From Escherichia coli (GTDB taxonomy: Bacteria; Pseudomonadota; Gammaproteobacteria; Enterobacterales; Enterobacteriaceae), in assembly GCF_003334335.1 (NCBI RefSeq), contig NZ_QOWQ01000021.1: a DNA stretch of 64,000 bases, one strand, 5' to 3'. The notes under the pieces were generated by a model. It was given only the letters and a program-made list of their open reading frames with translations. It ran no database searches and was not told the DNA's origin. Made by a program: the position numbers and the translations under genes. This document shows, one piece after another, positions 2,372 to 63,170 of the stretch (the stretch's first letter is position 1; each line of letters begins with the position of its first letter).

Positions 2372-2583
2372 AAAGCCGCGTATCTGTATCATCATGCACA
2401 TGGTGCCGGGTGCCTCCCGGTGAGTTCAGCCCGGTGCCACTAAACCCGCGTCATTCTCGTTTTGATAATCAGAGATTATACCGTCACCAGTCGCCCCTCC
2501 GCTCAGGGGGATTCACCATGCAGGATTTTTTTAACAAAATCCCTGACAGCCAGACAATCATCAACTTGCTGAATTGTGAGGTA

Positions 2584-2618
2584 TTTAAAAATTTAGCAGG
2601 GTAACGGATACCCTGCTA
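2584..2618 (-). terminator. Terminator-like hairpin just downstream of the phage tRNA cluster
   Basis: 10-bp stem TAGCAGGGTA/TACCCTGCTA with a 5-nt loop, followed on the minus strand by AATTTTT. Confidence 0.45.
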
Positions 2619-2684
2619 ACCACCTGGTGTTTTCTTTTTCAGCAACTAAAAGGCCCGCCGAAGCAAGCCAGAAAAAAATAAGTG

Positions 2685-2761
2685 TGGCGCGTTGTACTGG
2701 AGTCGAACCAGTGACCGATTGCTTAGAAGGCAATTGCTCTGTCCGGCTGAGCTAACAACGC
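2685..2761 (-). tRNA. argO: Phage tRNA-Arg (anticodon UCU)
   Basis: The reverse complement folds as a 77-nt cloverleaf: acceptor GCGTTGT/ACAACGC, anticodon loop CT-TCT-AA, T-loop TTCGACT, encoded CCA. Its position matches the ileZ-argN-argO cluster of Stx phages. Confidence 0.85.
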
Positions 2762-2775
2762 AGAATGCCGATAAA

Positions 2776-2852
2776 TGGACCGCCATCGAGGACTCGAACC
2801 CCGCGCAACCAGCTTCGAAGGCTGGCGCTCTATCCTGATGAGCTAATGGCGG
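2776..2852 (-). tRNA. argN: Phage tRNA-Arg (anticodon UCG)
   Basis: The reverse complement folds as a 77-nt cloverleaf: acceptor CCGCCAT/ATGGCGG, anticodon loop CT-TCG-AA, T-loop TTCGAGT, encoded CCA. Confidence 0.8.
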
Positions 2853-2859
2853 TATGTGA

Positions 2860-2931
2860 TGGTGGCCCTTGCTGGATTTGAACCAGCGACCTGGCGATTA
2901 TAACTCGCTCTCATCATTTAGCTAAAATGGC
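2860..2931 (-). pseudogene. Degenerate tRNA-Ile(CAU)-like gene (ileZ-like remnant)
   Basis: The 3' half (GGTCGCTGGTTCAAATCCAGCAAGGGCCACCA) is intact and ileX/ileZ-like. The 5' acceptor strand GCCATTT mispairs with AAGGGCC at two positions. The anticodon arm is about 4 nt short, reading GAGTTATAATCGCC. Total length is 72 nt. Confidence 0.6.
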
Positions 2932-3056
2932 TGGGGGAGTGATGATACATCAGTCACATTAAACATGAAAACAAATCGTTTTAGGTGAAATACAAAAAGA
3001 ATAGTGATTAAATATCAAATGGATATGCTTTAAATCTAACCACAGTAAAGACGAGT

Positions 3057-4001
3057 ATGATTTTTCTCAAGAATGGCGAAAGTTTTATTCGCGTGAATGA
3101 CTGGGCAGAAATTCAGGCGAGAGAGTCTTACTATCCCAAATTAGAGTTAAATGATCAGCAACTCTCTGACGTTTTTGGTTACTACGATGACCTACCAGAG
3201 GAAATTCCATGTGGAAAATCAAATTGCCGCAAAGGGCATAAAAAGGGATTTCTGGTAGTTACGAAAGAAGGATTTGAAACGAATATCGGCCATGTATGTG
3301 GAACTAATGTTTTTGGTATAGCATTTGATAATTTAGCAATAGAACTTTGCCGAAAAGCAGATTTCCATCGCTTACTTACCGCACTTAAAGAGGCAAAAGA
3401 TGATATTTTTAGCTATTACAAACTCAAAGCCAAAATCGAATCTGGGCGTCCATCACTAACTGAGGTTGCTCATAGAATACTTGACATGAAAGACCCTAAA
3501 ATCATCGGGCGTGCGGCTTATCAAACATTGAAAAAGATGGCTGCTTCTGGTGATGGGCGTGTTTTCCGCTCAAGATTAAAAAATACAGAAGAGCTAGAAC
3601 TGGACGAAATTATGTCCCAGAAGCAAACAAGCGACTCAGCTCCAAAAGTTAACAACAAAAACAAAACCGTAAATGAACTTATTGGGGTAATACAATACCC
3701 TGAATGCTTGCTGAATGATTATGACATTGCTCTTCTTTATGAAAGAGATATAAAAATGGTTCTGGAAAAATTAAACAAATGTACCCCAGATGAATTGACT
3801 GAAAGAGAGGTGTTGTCTTTTGGAATAAAGGTTTCAAGATTAAGAGAACGCTTTAACTTTGCTCAGGAACGCTTAGAAAAATCCAGGGTTTTTGCAACAA
3901 GAGAAAACCTTAAACCTTTACGTGCATTACTTAACATTCAGAAATCTGTAAGCAATAAAGACAAATTACTATTTAAGAAATTTATGGAAAATTTACCATA
4001 A
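3057..4001 (+). CDS. Hypothetical 314-aa protein with an N-terminal Cys/His knuckle; AT-rich moron antisense to the late operon
   Basis: Single long ORF in a visibly AT-rich block. Carries the motif CGKSNCRKGH...GHVCG, and the remainder is K/E-rich and helical. The stop is 2 nt before a strong hairpin. No family recognised. Confidence 0.7.
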   Translation: MIFLKNGESFIRVNDWAEIQARESYYPKLELNDQQLSDVFGYYDDLPEEIPCGKSNCRKGHKKGFLVVTKEGFETNIGHVCGTNVFGIAFDNLAIELCRKADFHRLLTALKEAKDDIFSYYKLKAKIESGRPSLTEVAHRILDMKDPKIIGRAAYQTLKKMAASGDGRVFRSRLKNTEELELDEIMSQKQTSDSAPKVNNKNKTVNELIGVIQYPECLLNDYDIALLYERDIKMVLEKLNKCTPDELTEREVLSFGIKVSRLRERFNFAQERLEKSRVFATRENLKPLRALLNIQKSVSNKDKLLFKKFMENLP

Positions 4002-4002
4002 T

Positions 4003-4028
4003 TAAAAAACCCGCTATAAAGCGGGTTC
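4003..4028. terminator. Bidirectional hairpin: tR'-like terminator for the PR' leader (minus strand) and terminator of the 314-aa ORF (plus strand)
   Basis: AACCCGC-TATAAA-GCGGGTT, with A6 on the plus-strand 5' side, which is T6 after the stem on the minus strand. Confidence 0.6.
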
Positions 4029-4068
4029 CGTGTTAATTTTTATATTGGCGCTAAACCCCATAATTAAA

Positions 4069-4098
4069 ATGATACAAGACAATTTTATGCAAAGTCAA
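4069..4098 (-). promoter_or_regulatory. PR'-like late promoter downstream of Q
   Basis: On the minus strand: TTGACT, 18 nt, TATCAT. It is located 40 nt after the Q stop and about 45 nt before the tR'-like hairpin. TTGACT and ATAAAATTG resemble lambda PR' as I recall it. Confidence 0.5.
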
Positions 4099-4137
4099 GT
4101 CGGTTGCTCAAAAATCTCTCCGCCAAAGCTGTTCAGA

Positions 4138-4953
4138 TCAGTAACTCGTTGCCTTCTCAAATTCTCTAGCCGCATGCCGCTCACCTTGATGCAGGATATC
4201 AATCAATTTTTCATAGAATGGTTTCCAATTGCGCGACCATGAAGACTGGTGCAGATCGGGAATGTATATTTGAATAGCTCGATGAACATTAGCTGATTTG
4301 ATAGATACGAATCCCTTTCCACTACAACGCTCGCAGATTTTAAACACTGGCACACCACGCTCGCTTGTGGCTTTGCGGTCCAGTACCTCTCCCTTTCCAC
4401 CACAACGACACCTGGCACTTATCACTCCCTTCCCTTTACATACATCGCAAACGACTGGTACAACTTCCGTTACCTCTGTCCATCTTTCCCAGTCTGACGG
4501 TCGAACAGCACGGGAGCGACTGGCCCAATATGGTGCTTTACCCCATGGGTATGAAACCTTACGAATGACCTGCTTACGGGGTGTTAGTCCGGTACCACTG
4601 CAACTATGGCATGTTACGCTGGTGGCCGCCGATCGGGAATACTCAGCAAAAGCAAACTGAGCCAGTACCAGCATACACCAGCCAAATTCACCACCAGCTG
4701 CTTTACGCACATTCTTCGGTGCAATTTCCATCGCGTGACGCGCCAGCGCCTGGACTGCCATCTGCTCATCAGTCTTGCTGATACCGGCCTTCCCGAAGAA
4801 GGCCGCCAGGCCAAACCGCTCACGATTACTGGTGGTACCAATAGCCGCCATAACATCGGTGCCTGTAAGACGTTCCGGAGAGGTTCCTTTCACATCGTCG
4901 CCGATATACATTCCCTGAGGACTGAAGTATTTTAGCGATGCCTCAAGCTTCAT
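4138..4953 (-). CDS. Late antiterminator Q, QuuQ/YdfT type (DnaJ-like CxxCxGxG zinc fingers)
   Basis: 271 aa. Contains MKLEASLKYFSPQ and four CxxCxGxG-type motifs (CHSCSGTG, CDVCKGKG, CRCGGKG, CERCSGKG), as in the Qin prophage Q homologue from memory. It is the last gene before PR'. Confidence 0.75.
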   Translation of the reverse strand: MKLEASLKYFSPQGMYIGDDVKGTSPERLTGTDVMAAIGTTSNRERFGLAAFFGKAGISKTDEQMAVQALARHAMEIAPKNVRKAAGGEFGWCMLVLAQFAFAEYSRSAATSVTCHSCSGTGLTPRKQVIRKVSYPWGKAPYWASRSRAVRPSDWERWTEVTEVVPVVCDVCKGKGVISARCRCGGKGEVLDRKATSERGVPVFKICERCSGKGFVSIKSANVHRAIQIYIPDLHQSSWSRNWKPFYEKLIDILHQGERHAAREFEKATSY

Positions 4954-5810
4954 TATTCACACTCCCCAACCAGATTGAGAATGACCGCTGCACCATCGTC
5001 TTCCATGCATTCACCCTTACCACTTGCCAGAAACCAGCGGCACACCTCCACGGCTTCAGCGCGTGTCACCGGTTTGATGGTTGCCAGCAATTTTTCAAGG
5101 TAGCGCTCCCGGTCATATACCGATTCGTGATGCTCAGAGTAACCAAACTCATCGCCCTGTTCTTTAGTTGCAGTGTGGCGAACACTGTAGAGCCAGTCCC
5201 AGTAAACGAACTCGCGAACAACATCAGACAGCGTATAAGGCTCAGGCAGCACATCGCGATATCCATCAACAAATGCCCGACGCTGTTCATCAATTTCGTT
5301 CATGCGGCTGCCGCCAATGCTTCCGGCTTTTTTCTCTGCCGCAGTCCAGCCCCAGAGATGATCGTTGATAAATTTCTGGGAAGACCTGATGACCCGCTCT
5401 GCTTCCACATCTTCGAGCGCTGCTTCATAGCTACCAAACGTAGCCCTGACTGATGCCGCTTTTTTGATGTTCTCCCGGGCGTTCCTGATAACCTGCGCAG
5501 GGTTATCCATGCCGATGATGCCGAACGCAACCTGGAAAGGTTCGTAACCATTCGCCAGCAGATAACGCGAATAGCGTTCCTGAGCCTCTTTTGGGGAAAT
5601 TTTAATTTTCACCAGCGCAGCCTCAGCAGCATCCAGATGTGCGGGTTCGTTCAGACGGATAACCTCCAGCACCCAAAGATAAGCATCAGTCTGCTTATGC
5701 CCGGTGATTCTCCGTTGCTCTGGCAGGGGCTTGATGTTTGCGAGGGCGGAGCTGTACGCTGCCGTCGGGATGGTGAATAGTGCTTTATGTTCGTTATTAT
5801 CAGTACGCAT
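4953..5810 (-). CDS. Hypothetical phage protein (285 aa) between primase and Q
   Basis: ORF track. Start and stop overlap both neighbours by 1 nt (translational coupling). No domain recognised. Confidence 0.7.
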   Translation of the reverse strand: MRTDNNEHKALFTIPTAAYSSALANIKPLPEQRRITGHKQTDAYLWVLEVIRLNEPAHLDAAEAALVKIKISPKEAQERYSRYLLANGYEPFQVAFGIIGMDNPAQVIRNARENIKKAASVRATFGSYEAALEDVEAERVIRSSQKFINDHLWGWTAAEKKAGSIGGSRMNEIDEQRRAFVDGYRDVLPEPYTLSDVVREFVYWDWLYSVRHTATKEQGDEFGYSEHHESVYDRERYLEKLLATIKPVTRAEAVEVCRWFLASGKGECMEDDGAAVILNLVGECE

Positions 5811-6779: not shown

Positions 6780-8438
6780 TTACTGACTCAGACTGTTTAT
6801 ATTTTTCTGGAGTTGGTGCTTTGCCTGCATGATGCGCCAGGCCTCACTGCCTGCCGGTATCTCACGTCGTTCATCACGTTCCTGAGATAAATCAATCGTT
6901 GTTTGTGCGTTTTCAGTGACCTTCTGAACCCGCTGGTGGCCTTTGGCAAACCGGATCAGTTTGTGTCTGATGTAGTTATTTACCTCAGGGGTAATTTCCA
7001 TCGGAAAGTTACTCAGTCCGTCAGGCCACTCACCGAACTTTTCCCGGAAAGTGTGAGCACACCATCCGTCACTGACTGGACGCCCCAGCGAAGCACGCTG
7101 GCGCTGATAAAATTTGATCTGACTCCACCAGGACTGTTTCTCTGCCTTCGTCGACTGATGCTGATTTTTACCCAGCTTATTAAGTTTGCGGCTAGTGTCA
7201 GTATCAACGTCTTCACCTCGCAGCGGCTTGTGTCCACATTTCGGGCAAACATAGACGCCTGCTGGCTTCATGTAGTGGCATTGAGGGCATTCATGTGGCA
7301 GTTTTTCGGCCCGTTCCTCAACTGCCCGGCGCGCGCTTTCCTCCATGCCGTCAGACTTACCGGGAAGCTCGTCGTACTCGATTGAATCCGGATAACCCAA
7401 ACGGTGCACGGTGCCGCTGTGATCGAAGATAAGGCAGGACTCTTTACCCGGTGCGGTGCGCAGCCCACGCCCGAGAGCCTGCAACCAGCGAATTTCGCTT
7501 TTTGTTGGCCTGGCGTAGATGATGCAACGAACGTCACTATCAAAGCCGGCCACCAGAACGCCCACACTAACGATGATTTTCGTTGCACCGGTTTCAAAGC
7601 GGTGAATGATGGTCTGGCGCTCATCTACCGGAGTGTCGGCGGTCATTACCTCAGCGTTAACACCCGCCAGGTTAAACTGGATTGTCAGATAATTGGCGTG
7701 AGCTACGTTGACGCAGAAAGCGATGGTAGGTAAATCCCGACCATTCTCCAGCCAGTTCTGTACGATGTCGCCCACCAGCGTAGAGCCGCACATGATTTCA
7801 GCCAGCTGTGTTTCGTTGTAATCGCGGCCGTACTCAAGCGAAGATGTGGTTTTAACACCTTTCAGATCCGGCTTAGTTGGCGCGTAAAATTCGTATTTAC
7901 TCAGATCGCCACGCTGGATTAACTCGCCGATGGTGGTCGGCTTAATCAGTCGGTCATAGTATTTGCCCAGGAACGGAGAAAACGGAGTACCCGACAGGCC
8001 AATCACCTTTACGCCTTTGCCGCGCAGACGTTCGATATCCTTCAGGATGCGTTTTTTACGCAGGTGCGCTTCGTCGATAATCAGCAGATCGATATTTTCA
8101 GGAAAAACACGACGAATAAGCGTGTCAGCGCTGGCAATCTGAATTTTCCGGTCCGGATCGTAGTTCGGGTGATCCGCCCAGATATAACCGATTTCATCTC
8201 CAGGTAAACCATACTGCACGAACCGATTAGCCGTCTGACCAATCAGGATGGTGTACGGAACACAGAACAGAACACGCATACCACGGCTGACAAAACCAGC
8301 AACTATGAAGGCTGCCAGACCCGTTTTACCGCTACCTGTTGGCGAGTAAACCATGAAGGTGTCGTTTGCCTTCCAGTCACGGCGCAACATGTTTAACGCT
8401 CGTTCCTGTGCAAAATTCGGCGTGATCGTCAGCTCCAT
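6780..8438 (-). CDS. Phage SF2 (DEAH) replicative helicase with a C-terminal zinc ribbon
   Basis: 552 aa. Walker A SPTGSGKT, motif II IIDEAH, motif VI QALGRGLR, and CPQCHYMKPAGVYVCPKCGH. Confidence 0.85.
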   Translation of the reverse strand: MELTITPNFAQERALNMLRRDWKANDTFMVYSPTGSGKTGLAAFIVAGFVSRGMRVLFCVPYTILIGQTANRFVQYGLPGDEIGYIWADHPNYDPDRKIQIASADTLIRRVFPENIDLLIIDEAHLRKKRILKDIERLRGKGVKVIGLSGTPFSPFLGKYYDRLIKPTTIGELIQRGDLSKYEFYAPTKPDLKGVKTTSSLEYGRDYNETQLAEIMCGSTLVGDIVQNWLENGRDLPTIAFCVNVAHANYLTIQFNLAGVNAEVMTADTPVDERQTIIHRFETGATKIIVSVGVLVAGFDSDVRCIIYARPTKSEIRWLQALGRGLRTAPGKESCLIFDHSGTVHRLGYPDSIEYDELPGKSDGMEESARRAVEERAEKLPHECPQCHYMKPAGVYVCPKCGHKPLRGEDVDTDTSRKLNKLGKNQHQSTKAEKQSWWSQIKFYQRQRASLGRPVSDGWCAHTFREKFGEWPDGLSNFPMEITPEVNNYIRHKLIRFAKGHQRVQKVTENAQTTIDLSQERDERREIPAGSEAWRIMQAKHQLQKNINSLSQ

Positions 8439-56661: not shown

Positions 56662-57663
56662 TTACCCTCTATTGTCAAAGGGATTCAGTTCAACAGCAGC
56701 CTCTAAATGACCCGGCGCAAAGTGTGCATAACGCATAGTCATTTTTATATCGCTATGCCCCAGTATTTTTTGCAACACAAGAATATTTCCTCCCCGCATC
56801 ATAAAATGGCTGGCAAACGTATGACGTAGCACATGAGTTAATTGTCCGTCAGGAAGTTCGATCTTTGCTCTCTTAATAGCGGCGTCAAAAGCCTCATAAC
56901 ATGGTGAAAAAAGCGCCCCGCGTTTTTTAGGAAGCATGGCCTGCAATTGAGGTGAAATAGGTACAGTGCGGTTCTTCTTTCCTTTGGTTTTAACAAATGT
57001 GATTCGTCCAGGCAGTATTTGAGATTGCTTTAATCCCTCTGCTTCACTCCACCTGGCACCAGTCGCAAGCCCAATACGGACGACAACACCCAAATCTTTA
57101 TTCCGTGACTCATCACATGCAATCAGAAGGCGTTCAATCTCATCTGCATACAGAAACGCCTGTTCCTTTTCTTCCTCACGAAACTTGCGAATACCTGTCA
57201 ATGGATTTTCACCAGACCACTCCCCAAGGCGCTTCAGTTCAGCAAAAACAGCATGTAAATATGACTGTTCGCGATTAACGGTTGCTTCACTAAGTTTTTT
57301 CTTCCCCTTTGGATTCCATTCACCTGATAACCGCCGCTCCCTGTAGATGGCAAACATATTTTTATCAAATTGAGAAGCAAACGGATCACCCAACCTAGAA
57401 CAAATCGCCTCAAGTTTAGCCTTGCGCTCTTCACCGGAAGACAACGTTTTACCGTACATTTCAAACCAGCGAGCAACCAACTCGGAAAGACGGGGGCCAG
57501 AACCATCCTGAAACTCGCCCCCTAAATTACCGTTCATTAAACGGCGCTCATAAGAGAGCGCCTCACCTTTAGTAGCAAACTGCTTACGAATGCGTTTTCC
57601 TGCTGCTCCGTAGGGATAGCATTCACAGAGCCATTTACCAGTAGATAGTTTACGAACAGACAT
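56662..57663 (-). CDS. int: P2-family tyrosine integrase
   Basis: 333 aa from MSVRKLSTGKWLCECYPYGAAGKRIRKQF. Catalytic motifs LATGARWSEA, HVLRHTFASH and MRYAH. The ORF track adds 25 upstream codons. Confidence 0.9.
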   Translation of the reverse strand: MSVRKLSTGKWLCECYPYGAAGKRIRKQFATKGEALSYERRLMNGNLGGEFQDGSGPRLSELVARWFEMYGKTLSSGEERKAKLEAICSRLGDPFASQFDKNMFAIYRERRLSGEWNPKGKKKLSEATVNREQSYLHAVFAELKRLGEWSGENPLTGIRKFREEEKEQAFLYADEIERLLIACDESRNKDLGVVVRIGLATGARWSEAEGLKQSQILPGRITFVKTKGKKNRTVPISPQLQAMLPKKRGALFSPCYEAFDAAIKRAKIELPDGQLTHVLRHTFASHFMMRGGNILVLQKILGHSDIKMTMRYAHFAPGHLEAAVELNPFDNRG

Positions 57664-57697: not shown

Positions 57698-57955
57698 TTA
57701 AGATGGTTGCTCAACCCGCATAAAGAGCTTTTCATCAACTAACTGCTCCCATTCATCGGGATCAAGCTCCCAAGAAGGAGCCGACATATCATCCTCATCC
57801 CCCTCATTTACAAAAGTAACCAAATAGAAAGGAAGATCTCCGGGCTCATCGTCATCGTCCTTGACAATATGAACATTAGTAACAACTATACGATTAGATG
57901 GATTAACTTTAGATACATATAAACCAATTAATGGAATTTGCGGATTAGTTACCAT
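57698..57955 (-). CDS. Highly acidic 85-aa protein
   Basis: AGAGGT SD. 19 Asp/Glu versus 5 Lys/Arg by my count, concentrated in the C-terminal half (DDDDEPGD, EGDEDD, ELDPDEWEQLVDE). Confidence 0.6.
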   Translation of the reverse strand: MVTNPQIPLIGLYVSKVNPSNRIVVTNVHIVKDDDDEPGDLPFYLVTFVNEGDEDDMSAPSWELDPDEWEQLVDEKLFMRVEQPS

Positions 57956-58153: not shown

Positions 58154-58798
58154 TCAGAAAAGAACACTGCCTAATAAAACACCAACAACGAAACACATTC
58201 CTGTTTCTTTCGGGTATTTTCTAATTATTTGCTGAAAATTCATCTGTAATTGACTACCGGCAGAATTGTTGGCAGTTAATTTCTTTTCTCCTTCCACTGA
58301 TTGTTGGTCTAACCAGGAAAGAGCCATCTGAAGCTGAGAACGAGTAAGATCGTTTAAGCGACCCGTTCCGAAATTGATATGGCAATAGCGGATAAGTTTT
58401 TGACGAAGCACTCCATCTTCACTATTACGAAGTAAAATACTTACAAGCGCCTTACGCGCATCATGATCTTTACATCGTTCAAGCATCGCACACAGAAAGC
58501 TCTCTGCGGTCTTATATTGATTCATTGTTATATCATCAATACTGTCTACACCAATCTCTGCATGCAATTTTTGCCAAATAATAAACGCCTCGGTATTGCT
58601 GGCATCTACAATAGCAGCAACTAATCTATTTAATGCCTTCCGTTGCCCCTTAAGTAAGGGGCGTGGATCACTGTTATTGCTCGAAGGAATTGCGATATTG
58701 ACGGTATGAGAGCCATCATATCGCCCTATCTGAATATTCTTTTCTTGGTAATCTCGCCCAGCAATACGATTATCTGAACCGTTTGAGTTGACCGTCAT
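58154..58798 (-). CDS. 214-aa tail-anchored membrane protein with an N-terminal NRIAGRDY motif and two internal ~55-aa repeats
   Basis: AGGAGG SD lies 15 nt after the repressor stop. C-terminal hydrophobic segment MCFVVGVLLGSVLF. Repeats QRKALNRLV...ESFL and ARKALVSIL...LSWL. AT-rich. Confidence 0.75.
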   Translation of the reverse strand: MTVNSNGSDNRIAGRDYQEKNIQIGRYDGSHTVNIAIPSSNNSDPRPLLKGQRKALNRLVAAIVDASNTEAFIIWQKLHAEIGVDSIDDITMNQYKTAESFLCAMLERCKDHDARKALVSILLRNSEDGVLRQKLIRYCHINFGTGRLNDLTRSQLQMALSWLDQQSVEGEKKLTANNSAGSQLQMNFQQIIRKYPKETGMCFVVGVLLGSVLF

Positions 58799-58813
58799 GC
58801 CACCTCCTTGCTA

Positions 58814-59218
58814 TCACTTACCCTTTGTTTCGTTATAGTCACGGCCTGCGATGCGGTTATTCCCGCCAGAGATATTTAACCCTCCCCCTGATGACTGACT
58901 CTCCTTTTCAGTGACTGCACCTTTCAAAGCACCAATCACCGCGTTTTTCACATCTAGTGAGGCACTCCGAAAACGTGTGATCAACTCCTGCTCATCATCG
59001 TTATAAGTTTCAGGTGAATGAATTCCCAACACGACATACTGAACATCAAGGCCAAAACGCGACAACGCTGATAAGTACGCCGCATCAGGAAAGCTATCCC
59101 CTTTCTCATATCTAAGTTGGGTTAACTTTTTAACCCCACCAATATCACTCATAGCGACTTGGCTAAGACCCAGCCGTTCCCTTTCCTCACGCAACCGTTG
59201 GCCAATATCATTTTTCAT
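58814..59218 (-). CDS. Immunity repressor (XRE HTH) with a C-terminal NRIAGRDY tail
   Basis: 134 aa. HTH segment LGLSQVAMSDIGGVKKLTQLRYEKGDSFP. Divergent from the early operon across a promoter/operator region. Confidence 0.8.
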   Translation of the reverse strand: MKNDIGQRLREERERLGLSQVAMSDIGGVKKLTQLRYEKGDSFPDAAYLSALSRFGLDVQYVVLGIHSPETYNDDEQELITRFRSASLDVKNAVIGALKGAVTEKESQSSGGGLNISGGNNRIAGRDYNETKGK

Positions 59219-59227
59219 ACAAAAACC

Positions 59228-59256
59228 TTGACAGGTATCTTTTTTGATACCAAAAT
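59228..59256 (+). promoter_or_regulatory. Early (lytic) promoter with an embedded operator
   Basis: TTGACA, 17 nt, CAAAAT. The spacer is the perfect inverted repeat GGTATC-TTTTTT-GATACC. Confidence 0.6.
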
Positions 59257-59293
59257 ACTTTCATGAGCCATTAGATGAACACAATATACCACT

Positions 59294-59512
59294 ATGAAAC
59301 AAGTTGTTCACGACACCAGATCACGGATTCCGCGTAACACAGCTACAGGACCGCGACTGGCACTTCGATTGTCAGCAGAAGAGCGAGCCGTCATTGATGA
59401 AATGGCAACTAAAGAACAGCGCTCATCCTCTAACATGGCACGCATGATCTTCCTTCGTGGCCTTGAGATTATCCAGAAAGAGCAAAACCAATCTTCATGC
59501 TCAGGAGGTTAA
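59294..59512 (+). CDS. Ribbon-helix-helix (CopG/Arc-like) early regulator
   Basis: 72 aa. The segment PRLALRLSAEERAVIDEMATKEQRSSSNMARMIFLRGLE follows an RHH pattern. It is the first gene of the rightward operon. Confidence 0.65.
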   Translation: MKQVVHDTRSRIPRNTATGPRLALRLSAEERAVIDEMATKEQRSSSNMARMIFLRGLEIIQKEQNQSSCSGG

Positions 59513-59516
59513 CGGG

Positions 59517-59720
59517 ATGCAAGGTATAACAATAAACATCAACGTTAATGCCCCTTACGTATCTCTGAAGAAATACGCCGAGATAACAGGCATTCCTCTT
59601 AACACATGCAAAAAGATGTTGGCTGACGGTCGAATTATTATCCGCCCCAAACGCGCCAAAATGGAAAAACCAGAAGTAAACCTTATAGCTATGTTAAAAG
59701 ACGCAATAGCCAACAGCTAA
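59517..59720 (+). CDS. Cox/Apl-like HTH (excisionase-type) protein, 67 aa from MQGITININ
   Basis: AGGAGG SD. The segment YVSLKKYAEITGIPLNTCKKMLADGRI is an excisionase-type HTH. Confidence 0.6.
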   Translation: MQGITININVNAPYVSLKKYAEITGIPLNTCKKMLADGRIIIRPKRAKMEKPEVNLIAMLKDAIANS

Positions 59721-61153: not shown

Positions 61154-61378
61154 ATGAGAACAGTCGAATCACCCGCAACCGCCAGACCAGTTAACCATCA
61201 TGCACATATCAGCATGGCCGCGAGAAAAGCCGAGCGTGCGCATATCTGCGAATTGCTCCGAGACCTGGTTAACACGGCGAAAGAGAAGCACTCCTCCCCG
61301 CTGGAAACCTGTTCAGCCATTGAACGACTGATTGCAACGCTCACGAACAACACCGAACTGAAGGGGTCAGCGCAATGA
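61154..61378 (+). CDS. Hypothetical protein (74 aa from MRTVESPATARP)
   Basis: CAGGAG SD; ATGA overlap with the exonuclease gene. Confidence 0.55.
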   Translation: MRTVESPATARPVNHHAHISMAARKAERAHICELLRDLVNTAKEKHSSPLETCSAIERLIATLTNNTELKGSAQ

Positions 61379-61956
61379 ACCATCTCATGATTGACACCGA
61401 AACACTGGGTAACGGACCGGACGCAGCCATATTCGCGATCGGGGCGGTGTTTTTCGACCCGTTCACCGGAAAGCTGGGCAAGCAGTTTGAGAAATTCATC
61501 GACCCGGTAGATTCAGAACGCAACGGCGGAACCGTCAATGCAGCCACCGCTGTATGGTGGGCCGGACAATCCGTGGAGGCCAGATCCTGCCTGCGCAACG
61601 CAGAGGGAACAGAGCTTGCGGCAGTAACCGAATTTCTGGCGTTCATTTCACGCAATATGCATGACGAAAGCACGGGCAATTCACTGACCATATGGTGTAA
61701 GGGCGCATCCTTCGATTTCCCGATCCTGAAATCCGCCATAACACGCACAGCCGGAGAAAAAAGCATCCCCTGGTGCTACTGGAACGAGCGCTGTATGCGC
61801 CCGCTTATCGCCATGGCTGAATCAACTGGATGGAAAATGCCAGGCAGATCAGGAAAAGAGGCCATTGCTCACACCGCGCTGGGCGACGCCATTTACCAGG
61901 CAAAGGTCGTGTCAGAAATCTGGCAGCGCTTCACAACACCATTCCTGAACATATGA
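61375..61956 (+). CDS. DEDDh-type 3'-5' exonuclease
   Basis: 193 aa. MIDTETLG (Exo I), FDFPIL (Exo II) and HTALGDAIYQA (Exo III, H-x4-D). Confidence 0.75.
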   Translation: MNHLMIDTETLGNGPDAAIFAIGAVFFDPFTGKLGKQFEKFIDPVDSERNGGTVNAATAVWWAGQSVEARSCLRNAEGTELAAVTEFLAFISRNMHDESTGNSLTIWCKGASFDFPILKSAITRTAGEKSIPWCYWNERCMRPLIAMAESTGWKMPGRSGKEAIAHTALGDAIYQAKVVSEIWQRFTTPFLNI

Positions 61957-61965
61957 GGTGAAGCC

Positions 61966-62193
61966 ATGGTCGCCATCCTGAATGTGTGTTGCTGCCCCCC
62001 CCTGAACGTGGAAAGAAAAGCCCGCGCATCGCTGCGTTTATTCCGCGACGGCGTGCGGAATTTTTCACGCATAAAACCCCACGACTACCTGGTAATAAGA
62101 ATCGGTTTCCGCTGGCGATTACTGAGCAAAAACAACGGGGCGTCATGGGATTTATTAACGCACGAAACCTATAACAAAGAGGCCGCGTTATGA
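61966..62193 (+). CDS. 75-aa protein with a HigB/RelE-like C-terminal motif (paralogue of 11747-11965)
   Basis: The segment IRIGFRWRLLSKNNGASWDLLTHETYNKE aligns with KVNRRWRLLSKDDGRNWEVMSHERYSGE. Confidence 0.5.
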   Translation: MVAILNVCCCPPLNVERKARASLRLFRDGVRNFSRIKPHDYLVIRIGFRWRLLSKNNGASWDLLTHETYNKEAAL

Positions 62194-63170
62194 GCAAAGA
62201 ACTGTTATCCGGTACGCCACTGAAATGGGTGGGCGGAAAAAGCCGCATCATGAACACACTGAAGGCGCACCTGCCAGAAGCCGACTGTCTGGTTGAGCCG
62301 TTCGTGGGCGGCGCATCGGTATTCATGAACACCAGTTACAAGCGTTACATCCTGGGTGATTCCAATGGTGCGCTGATTAATTTCTACCGGCAAGCTAGGG
62401 ACAACACCGACAGCCTGATCGACGAGGCGAAAACCCTGTTCCTGAACCACAACAACAGGGGTGACTATCTCATCATTCGCGAAACCTTTAACGCAGAGAA
62501 TCATGCCTTCCTGAACAGCAGAACGGGAATAAGCGACCGCCGTGAACTGCGACTGGCCGCCATGTTTTTGTACCTGAACCGACACAGCTTTAACGGTTTG
62601 TTCCGCGTGAACGGAAAAGGCGATTTTAACGTGCCTTTCGGCTGCTACCGCAAGCCCTACTTCCCTGAGCGTGAAATCCGCGCATTTGCAGACAAGGCAA
62701 ACAGCACCCGAACGCTGCTTATCCACGCAGATTTTAAGGATACGCTGAACTCTGCCAGTCACCTGTTCGGCATGGGCAACACGCTTTGCGTGTACTGCGA
62801 TCCCCCTTACCTGCAATTCAGTGGCCGGGACAATTTTACCGCCTACGGAAAACCATTCGATGAAGACGAGCACGTTCGTCTGAGGGCAGCGCTTGACCGC
62901 CTTTCACAGGAAACGGGCGGCATGACCAGCATCACCATCTCCAATTCCGACACACCGGAAACACGACGCATTTATCGGGGTTACCGGATGAACTGCATAC
63001 AGGCACCACGAAGCGTTGGCGCAAGAACCCGGGAATCAGCACCGGAGGTTATCGCCACCCTGAGACAGTGCGACGCCTGCGGTCACCATGGCGGTGGCTA
63101 CTGCCCGGACTGCGGACCTGTAACGGGAGATGCAACTTACAGCGTGATGTTTACCCCTGCCAGTACGTGA
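62190..63170 (+). CDS. dam: Dam-type N6-adenine DNA methyltransferase with a C-terminal zinc-ribbon extension
   Basis: 326 aa. LKWVGGKSRIM, EPFVGGASVF (SAM binding), DPPY. C-terminal CDACGHHGGGYCPDCG. Confidence 0.85.
   Translation: MSKELLSGTPLKWVGGKSRIMNTLKAHLPEADCLVEPFVGGASVFMNTSYKRYILGDSNGALINFYRQARDNTDSLIDEAKTLFLNHNNRGDYLIIRETFNAENHAFLNSRTGISDRRELRLAAMFLYLNRHSFNGLFRVNGKGDFNVPFGCYRKPYFPEREIRAFADKANSTRTLLIHADFKDTLNSASHLFGMGNTLCVYCDPPYLQFSGRDNFTAYGKPFDEDEHVRLRAALDRLSQETGGMTSITISNSDTPETRRIYRGYRMNCIQAPRSVGARTRESAPEVIATLRQCDACGHHGGGYCPDCGPVTGDATYSVMFTPAST

Follow-up and report, generated by a model that had tools for sequence, protein, structure and literature searches.

Several families of neighbouring bacterial genes are known whose products carry the same short peptide. 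Bell/NLR gene pairs share BASS amyloid-signalling motifs (Dyrka et al., 10.1101/2020.01.06.895854), and in Bab/Agp, an abortive-infection pair of E. coli prophages, the BASS11 motif is C-terminal in one protein and N-terminal in its neighbour, and forms fibrils (10.1101/2024.11.07.622273). In phage lambda, the repressor CI contacts the membrane protein RexB (10.1101/2021.04.19.439022), and two-hybrid assays show contacts of the Rex proteins with CI; these proteins modulate the switch and exclude other phages (PMC11077077). Here we describe a 64,000-nucleotide stretch of Escherichia coli DNA (contig NZ_QOWQ01000021.1; the whole stretch is called the window below) in which a P2-like prophage occupies 56.6-64 kb, adjoining yecA and tyrP. 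The immunity repressor of this prophage and the membrane-anchored protein encoded directly 3' of it (the partner) share a peptide with the core NRIAGRDY, placed at the C-terminus of the first and at the N-terminus of the second. We propose, with a probability of about 0.5, that the repressor tail and the partner N-terminus constitute a cognate, co-evolving homotypic motif of beta-strand type that couples the repressor to a self-associating, membrane-anchored partner. The elements of the pair are as follows.

58814-59218, minus strand: immunity repressor, 134 aa, XRE-type (helix-turn-helix (HTH) matches below cut-off and PHROG repressor families)
58817-58897, minus strand: C-terminal tail of the repressor, residues 108-134, with a Gly/Ser linker, the motif and the basic end KGK (predicted local distance difference test, pLDDT, 40-50)
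58829-58879, minus strand: repressor copy of the motif, LNISGGNNRIAGRDYNE, residues 114-130, core NRIAGRDY at 58858-58835
58803-58808, minus strand: AGGAGG, ribosome-binding site of the partner gene as read from the sequence, in the 15-nt gap past the repressor stop codons TGA TAG
58154-58798, minus strand: partner protein, 214 aa, Flk_N/phrog_5825 (profile matches and AlphaFold2 (AF2) model)
58667-58798, minus strand: disordered N-terminal region of the partner, residues 1-44, with the further beta-like segments NIQIGRY and HTVNIAIP
58742-58792, minus strand: partner copy of the motif, VNSNGSDNRIAGRDYQE, residues 3-19, core NRIAGRDY at 58771-58748
58271-58666, minus strand: Flk_N body, all-helical, residues 45-176, built of two ~60-aa tandem repeats that each form a small bundle of helices
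58157-58213, minus strand: C-terminal membrane anchor, residues 196-214 (AF2 helix 196-213), with G206-x-x-x-G210, both Gly invariant

The repressor ends ...LNISGGNNRIAGRDYNETKGK, and the product of the partner gene opens MTVNSNGSDNRIAGRDYQE (MTVNSNGSDNRIAGRDYQEKNIQ). The two copies align over 17 residues and score 61, where shuffled tails give 22 ± 4.5 (z = 8.6), and a six-frame scan finds these two copies and no other in the whole 64 kb. No third motif-bearing protein that could be a common partner was thus found in the window. A 552-aa helicase-like protein (6780-8438, minus strand) contains YGRDYNETQ and within it GRDYNET, seven residues as in the repressor tail; this match is part of a folded domain and remote from the prophage, and was put down to coincidence. 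A preliminary description of this DNA had stressed that the shared codons are fully recoded. This is correct for the window allele, in which the third positions differ in all eight shared codons (58858-58835 versus 58771-58748; p ~0.02 under random synonymous choice), and does not extend to the pair in general: over nine loci, 37 of 62 same-residue codons (60%) differ at the third position, the expectation being ~63%. Directed recoding that would avoid repeat-mediated deletion was rejected, since the pooled third-position differences equal the neutral expectation; with these differences at the neutral level and the peptide kept, the two copies speak for an old divergence and selection on the peptide.

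Both motif copies are disordered in the monomer models (pLDDT 40-51). The repressor model (mc0c8ffcc251d) consists of a five-helix HTH domain at residues 5-64 (nt 59206-59027), two more helices at 74-106 and the disordered residues 108-134 (pLDDT 40-50). The repressor matches HTH_31, HTH_3 and HTH_19 (below the Pfam cut-off) as well as PHROG repressor families, and its gene is divergent to Arc-like and Cox-like early genes. No peptidase domain was revealed in it by the domain search or by the AF2 model. In composition the motif is rich in G (15.5%), V (9.4%), N (9.2%), Q (7.2%) and I (7.2%), and would form short strands punctuated by Gly. Among 20 partner homologues spanning different genera, N10, R11, D16 and E19 of the motif are invariant, and G14 and R15 nearly so.

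The pairing is not confined to this prophage. About 70 distinct further loci in P2-like and Mu-like prophages possess a tailed repressor followed by a co-oriented gene with the matching N-terminal variant. The window region itself is matched in 524 of 5,426 complete E. coli genomes (up to ~10%), mostly at 80-90% identity, and the module is distributed over many Enterobacterales, Gilliamella and other Proteobacteria. A genome scan with the single partner protein as query gave no match, and an alignment-based rescan returned only nine loci. The pair is present in all eight intact loci of these nine (Rosenbergiella, Mixta, Enterobacter, Izhakiella, Erwinia, Kosakonia, Symbiopectobacterium symbiont). 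Counted over nine genera, no intact orthologous locus lacks it. In the degenerating prophage of Candidatus Symbiopectobacterium endolongispinus (L012, 3605-4631), the partner N-terminus is lost, the repressor motif is changed to NRVAGNNF and int is truncated, so that decay has affected the two motif copies jointly. In E. coli, a diverged allele (L002) retains both copies; at L003, which has a repressor of another immunity type, the repressor ends ...HRIAGRDYNETKG and the partner N-terminus reads ...DNRVSGRDYHEK. Furthermore, the neighbours of a tail-less homologous repressor from a 186-like prophage (P0221) are neither motif-led nor Flk_N proteins. Nearly all gene junctions fall between -4 and +34 nt, and several are ATGA/GTGA overlaps. 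Practically no isolated phages carry the partner gene; the one record is Escherichia phage 520873 (NC_049344.1/CP025923.1), where a close, unannotated copy at ~2486-3065 aligns in three pieces.

Altogether, 208 repressor homologues were found. Among the best 120 of these 208, 50 have an NR[IV]AGRD[YF] tail, and many of the others have different G/N/Q-rich tails with a basic cluster at the end; indeed, the tails of all 47 distinct viral repressor homologues contain at least two K/R within the last 8 residues. The repressors of motif pairs are XRE HTH proteins of 127-155 aa. Looking up the neighbours of the repressor homologues with tails other than NRIAGRDY showed that in every resolvable case of the other tail classes the matching variant opens the next protein (repressor tail first, partner N-terminus second).

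L013, Pectobacterium: FNGDISGQFAGNQIIN; FNGTAQGQFSSRDIIN
L016, Gilliamella: GEGQIAGGNIYT; TAEQIAGRDIYN
L018: QQFNGPVGTVTTGDVVN; QQFHGAVEQVAAGDIKN
L019: QIFHGSVGQVIKGD; QSFHGDTGVVAGGD
L020: PIGDIFGRDLV; PVGDVAGRDII
L023: QVFHGAVSGGVAARDIINN; QEFQGNVDGGVAGRDIVNQ
L024: ISVGGDMGG...GGNVTANV; IDVQGDLGV...GGAINIHL
L025: QSGGGVQVGHSSGPVTV; QSGSGTQIGQVRGNVYV
L106: QVIHGDVLGNVIKGDVTM; QTVNGDVGNVVSGDVTI

These tabulated loci are Mu-like transposable prophages, with an rve transposase, a MuB-like ATPase and a Ner-like HTH gene, and with holin and SLT genes downstream. The module is therefore not specific to P2-like prophages and occurs across phage types. When each of 10 classes is represented by one pair, the cognate pairs reach a score sum of 443, compared to 274 ± 31 for permuted pairs, and none of 200,000 permutations attains the cognate value. 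Searching with the repressor alignment also gave 80 viral contigs as an independent sample, in which there are 47 distinct pairs. Here z is at least 3 in 43 of the 47 and at least 5 in 36 of the 47, and for the 13 tail classes of this set 0 of 100,000 permutations reach the cognate sum. Selection on a short linear motif and its use as a homotypic docking or decoy peptide had been proposed from the window alone, and both co-occurrence and co-variation strongly support this proposal. Several motif classes coexist within one host genus (Gilliamella), which makes a conserved host factor unlikely as the reader of the motif.

The motif is modular as well, since it heads unrelated protein bodies. Apart from the Flk_N body with anchor, the following were found.

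L015, L062, L101: 150-aa proteins with two transmembrane (TM) segments
L070: zinc ribbon and two TM segments
L020, L023, L093-95, L106: coiled coil, TM segment and C-terminal domain
L024 (116 aa), L025 (137 aa): small proteins without a clear TM segment (rare)

At L020, one tailed repressor is followed by two motif-led membrane proteins. The second of these is encoded at 3873-4265 (plus strand), which, read from an upstream ATG, gives 131 aa starting MNRQDFHGPVSQVAGRDIINV with 2-3 TM segments; the start set by the gene caller is 4014. The gene that comes after the partner varies by locus and encodes a DUF8087 or DUF2511 protein, a protein of 244-292 aa, a lipoprotein or, in L018, a TIR_2 protein. 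Hence the partner is not a variable moron and belongs to the conserved core as the companion of the repressor, and it is the next gene that fills a cargo slot. This slot lies between partner and int in P2-like prophages and between partner and lysis genes in Mu-like ones (window, 57698-57955, minus strand; L002, 2476-2823; L004-L011, ~4640-5540; L018, 3597-4862), and looks like a moron/defence hotspot behind the conserved pair.

The partner of the window had not been recognised in the preliminary description, and profile searches now place it among Flk-related proteins. It is a member of phrog_5825 (E 6e-92), Pfam PF27202 (Flk_N) is assigned to it in precomputed annotation, and it matches NCBIfam Flk (PRK10715) with E 1e-15 and 58 bits, far under the 353-bit cut-off, residues 38-168 aligning with Flk residues 21-151. 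Its AF2 model (m19ee1ff315c1) is of low confidence at 1-44, confident and all-helical at 45-176, and continues with a disordered linker and the terminal helix 196-213. The two repeats of ~55 aa and the C-terminal hydrophobic anchor, both noticed in the preliminary description, are real (the repeats with a local-alignment z = 6.9 versus shuffles, the anchor as this terminal helix). Flk ("Fluke"), a regulator of flagellar type III secretion in Salmonella and E. coli, is cytoplasmic with a C-terminal anchor and inhibits the flagellar export gate (PMC13344023). The partner possesses homologous cytoplasm-facing Flk_N repeats and a single C-terminal anchor like Flk; it was nevertheless rejected as a Flk equivalog, being a prophage protein of 214 aa with another N-terminus that scores below the cut-off, versus the ~330-aa product of chromosomal flk. 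Exhaustive profile searching for the partner among 1.84 billion representatives yields only 138 clusters. Those with long proteins (320-430 aa, N-terminus MQP.SGP...) are true, chromosomal Flk and do not carry the motif, whereas nearly all short forms start with a variant of it. The anchors differ as well: GxxxG is present in 24 of 29 motif-led short forms and in 1 of 23 true Flk proteins, the expectation from shuffling being 18%. In one subgroup (P0283, encoded at L107, 264-944; P0279, P0298, P0301, P0307), a helical extension of ~45 aa (...RLAKLAE.L...) precedes the G/N-rich motif IKVKGAGNTINVGGTQVNL; at L107, a short contig, the upstream partial gene ends without a G/N-rich tail. This subgroup of Flk_N/anchor proteins may represent a different wiring of the same module.

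Re-reading the sequence confirmed gene order, coordinates and sequences of the repressor, the 214-aa ORF, the acidic ORF and int. The other features of the leftward operon and of the divergent early region are listed here.

59283-59310, minus strand: Pc-like sigma-70 promoter 5' of the repressor gene (TGAACA-16-TATATT, extended TG; from a consensus scan)
57698-57955, minus strand: acidic 85-aa ORF, DUF8087/phrog_17127, in the variable cargo slot between partner and int, outside the conserved pair
56662-57663, minus strand: P2-type integrase, the final gene of the leftward operon, adjoining host yecA (Int_N and Phage_integrase; annotation of identical E. coli loci)
59228-59256, plus strand: Pe-like promoter of the divergent early genes (promoter scan)
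59294-59512, plus strand: Arc-like repressor, divergent early gene (phrog_3431, E 2e-28)
59517-59720, plus strand: Cox-like excisionase/repressor, divergent early gene (phrog_575, E 6e-27)

On the minus strand, the Pc-like promoter is followed by the repressor gene, the 15-nt spacer, the 214-aa ORF, the 85-aa ORF and int. The scan found no terminator-like site on this strand between the promoter and int, and a single operon of repressor, partner, DUF8087 gene and int therefore fits. The placement of the partner 3' of the repressor in a lysogenic operon, as first described, is upheld, and at the level of consensus elements (same strand, 15-nt gap, Pc-like promoter, absence of a terminator-like site) the partner is predicted to be co-transcribed with the repressor. 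In the window allele the two genes are in-frame, with TGA TAG and three codons between them (58814-58798). A read-through fusion is not conserved, because the gap in other genera is 8-11 nt and out of frame. The AT-richness noted earlier for the partner gene is real as well: its GC content is 40.3% and that of the lysogeny operon 39-46%, versus 52.8% for the early stretch at 61-64 kb. Note that RefSeq/PGAP annotates a 45-aa minus-strand hypothetical protein at 59308-59445 (WP_001537127.1 in identical E. coli loci). It overlaps the plus-strand 72-aa Arc-like ORF (59294-59512), which is probably the real gene, because of its phrog_3431 match (E 2e-28) and the Pe-like promoter ahead of it. Further into the early region (61375-63170, plus strand), genes for a 3'-5' exonuclease, a small ParE-family toxin-like protein (so annotated where E. 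coli loci are identical) and a Dam-type DNA adenine methylase follow consecutively.

How does this pair compare with the systems named at the outset? As in amyloid-signalling pairs, a motif of ~17-30 aa recurs in the proteins of two neighbouring genes, at the end of one and the start of the other, and exists in many families, each matched within the pair. The similarities also include the membrane-directed nature of one partner, the location in prophages, the portability of the motif between effector bodies and the possibility of more than one effector per sensor. Segments of ~20-25 aa that are rich in G/N/Q, with putative short strands set off by Gly and disorder in the monomer, may be a further likeness. 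The RHIM/BASS3 signature G-phi-Q-phi-G is present in both partners of a single class, L025; a RHIM-like reading of IQIG in the window partner was rejected, as its Gly is not conserved within the family. In contrast to the amyloid-signalling pairs, the C-terminal copy here is on a small XRE DNA-binding repressor rather than on an effector, an NLR/STAND, TPR or other oligomerising sensor is absent, and the orientation is reversed, with the membrane protein bearing the N-terminal copy. A Flk_N body with a C-terminal anchor stands in place of the Bell/HeLo domain, and a membrane-targeting execution domain of that type was not found in the partner. Moreover, our pairs are from Proteobacteria, which contributed few cases to the BASS survey (10.1101/2020.01.06.895854). 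The BASS papers make no mention of repressors, HTH or Flk.

The lambda cI-rexA-rexB arrangement is similar in having accessory genes directly 3' of the repressor that are co-transcribed with it in the lysogen, one product being an inner-membrane protein. It differs in that there is one partner here and two in lambda, that coupling here would proceed via a duplicated terminal peptide which is absent from Rex and CI, and that a relation in sequence or architecture is missing: no RexA-like or RexB-like homology was detected via PADLOC for the partner, the acidic ORF or nine alternative partners. Sie2009, Ltp and SieB are, like the partner, small membrane-associated proteins made in the lysogen, and their genes lie between those for repressor and integrase. 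To our knowledge, they have no homology to it, and none of them is known to share a peptide with the repressor. Type II toxin-antitoxin systems with an HTH-XRE antitoxin (HipBA, MqsRA-like) resemble the pair in their small upstream HTH protein with a disordered C-terminal tail, tightly coupled partner gene and single promoter, and in both the tail would neutralise the downstream product. In our case, however, the HTH protein is the master repressor of a prophage facing the early lytic operon, and the protein encoded downstream has no match among toxin families; normally, the tail of an antitoxin does not contain a copy of a toxin peptide. Indeed, Pfam, NCBIfam and PADLOC gave no match of the window partner to any toxin or defence family, and membership in a known defence system was rejected, PADLOC having returned nothing beyond coiled-coil noise.

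From these data we infer direct binding, a direction of control and a membrane outcome. Judged by the sequences, the repressor tail quite probably contacts the partner N-terminus directly, and a cognate homotypic contact is favoured because the two copies are gained and lost jointly and co-vary, and because the motif is portable between bodies and occurs in several classes within one host genus. The partner, made from the same lysogenic operon and usually by translational coupling, would self-assemble through the motif at its N-terminus and the anchor with GxxxG. As a second copy of the motif, the repressor tail would cap this assembly (or template it, in an amyloid version), so that the oligomeric state of the partner in the membrane would follow the state of the repressor. 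As long as the repressor is plentiful, the partner would be held; once the repressor is lost, titrated or attacked, on induction or by an incoming anti-repressor, the partner would assemble and act at the inner membrane, in exclusion, in abortive infection or in an induction-linked membrane activity. Homology lends no support to an exclusion or abortive function, PADLOC having given no match.

Several observations weigh against this proposal. We know of no precedent for a repressor that serves an effector as its sensor or cap. No toxin or pore fold is recognisable in the partner bodies, and PADLOC found no match for the partner, the acidic ORF and the nine alternative partners save coiled-coil noise. 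The curated amyloid-motif models (RHIM/HET-s/Ses_B, Pfam) gave zero matches, for which reason the pair is not filed as a BASS member. Three or four pairs (L015/L066, L093, L094) align weakly, their likeness being visible by eye, and a membrane output cannot be universal, because the L024 and L025 partners have no obvious TM segment. Finally, the partner copy in phage 520873 is probably disrupted, suggesting that the partner gene is dispensable for that phage.

The partners without TM segments would be accounted for if control ran the other way, i.e., if the membrane-tethered partner were a modulator or anti-repressor that binds the repressor tail, or co-assembles with it upon some membrane or energetic signal, sequesters the repressor at the inner membrane and so tunes or triggers the switch from lysogeny to lysis. 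Such reverse control is possible, if not likely, and fits nearly as well as the favoured direction. The repressor is the only invariant other end, while the partner bodies vary and a few have no TM segment; lacking a LexA-type self-cleavage or peptidase domain, these repressors would need a route of inactivation other than cleavage. The helical body resembles small peptide-binding modules and weakly matches a PHROG of Ant anti-repressors (phrog_245, E 4e-4). Sequestration of Mlc by PtsG offers a model, and a similar mechanism has been proposed for lambda CI-RexB. Inhibition through binding of a partner is also how the membrane-anchored Flk works (PMC13344023), and in lambda, induction is modulated by Rex proteins, which bind CI (PMC11077077). 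On the other hand, an anti-repressor made constitutively in fixed proportion to its target needs a gating signal, and none is visible; the tiny 2-TM partners leave little space for a sensor domain; simple sequestration needs no homotypic motif; and the conserved GxxxG points to self-assembly of the partner. That both motifs dock one further factor instead of each other, and that this factor (from the phage an anti-repressor or an adaptor for a protease, from the host a protease or a chaperone) handles repressor and partner jointly, seems improbable to us. One binding protein often recognises its various clients by the same short linear motif, the disordered tails with their basic end resemble many degrons, and a co-evolving phage-encoded reader would likewise produce co-variation. 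However, a third copy is missing from the window, the flanks of 15 loci contain none except that of the second membrane partner in L020, the differing motif classes in the same host genus rule out a conserved host reader, and tail and partner are gained or lost jointly. Lastly, the likeness could be functionless, left over from an old local duplication or arisen by chance between low-complexity termini: both regions are G/N-rich and of low complexity, and the window genes are in-frame and 15 nt apart. This is hard to reconcile with the alignment scores (z = 8.6 in the window, at least 3 in 43 of 47 other pairs), the saturation of synonymous sites with the peptide retained, the co-variation over at least 13 classes, the residues invariant across genera, and joint decay in the degenerating genome only, and we regard it as highly improbable.

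By analogy with the amyloid-signalling pairs, a true amyloid or prion-like device with a transcription factor as templating partner can be imagined, and we consider it doubtful. It could operate by either of two routes. In route (a), the repressor tail would seed or cap polymerisation of the membrane effector, and the repressor would double as a sensor for abortive infection or exclusion. In route (b), partner assembly upon membrane or energetic stress, or upon the arrival of an incoming phage, would co-polymerise with the repressor and inactivate it.

A literature search for the peptide strings returned nothing relevant, and within the literature that was searchable, no paper connects the repressors of prophages with Flk_N proteins and shared terminal motifs. 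Were the coupling real, the lysis-lysogeny switch would be wired directly to a membrane protein via a duplicated, rapidly diversifying peptide, whose classes behave like specificity codes. Shared-motif signalling of the amyloid type would then extend from NLR/effector immunity pairs to a DNA-binding repressor, and there would be a handle on how the repressors of P2-like and Mu-like prophages that are not cleaved in the SOS response are controlled, or on what such repressors guard. Should the amyloid reading hold, a transcription factor would be placed inside a templating circuit, and its route (b) would provide SOS-independent induction of P2-like and Mu-like prophages. For a family present in up to ~10% of complete E. 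coli genomes, the coupling of repressor and membrane partner may serve as a working hypothesis.

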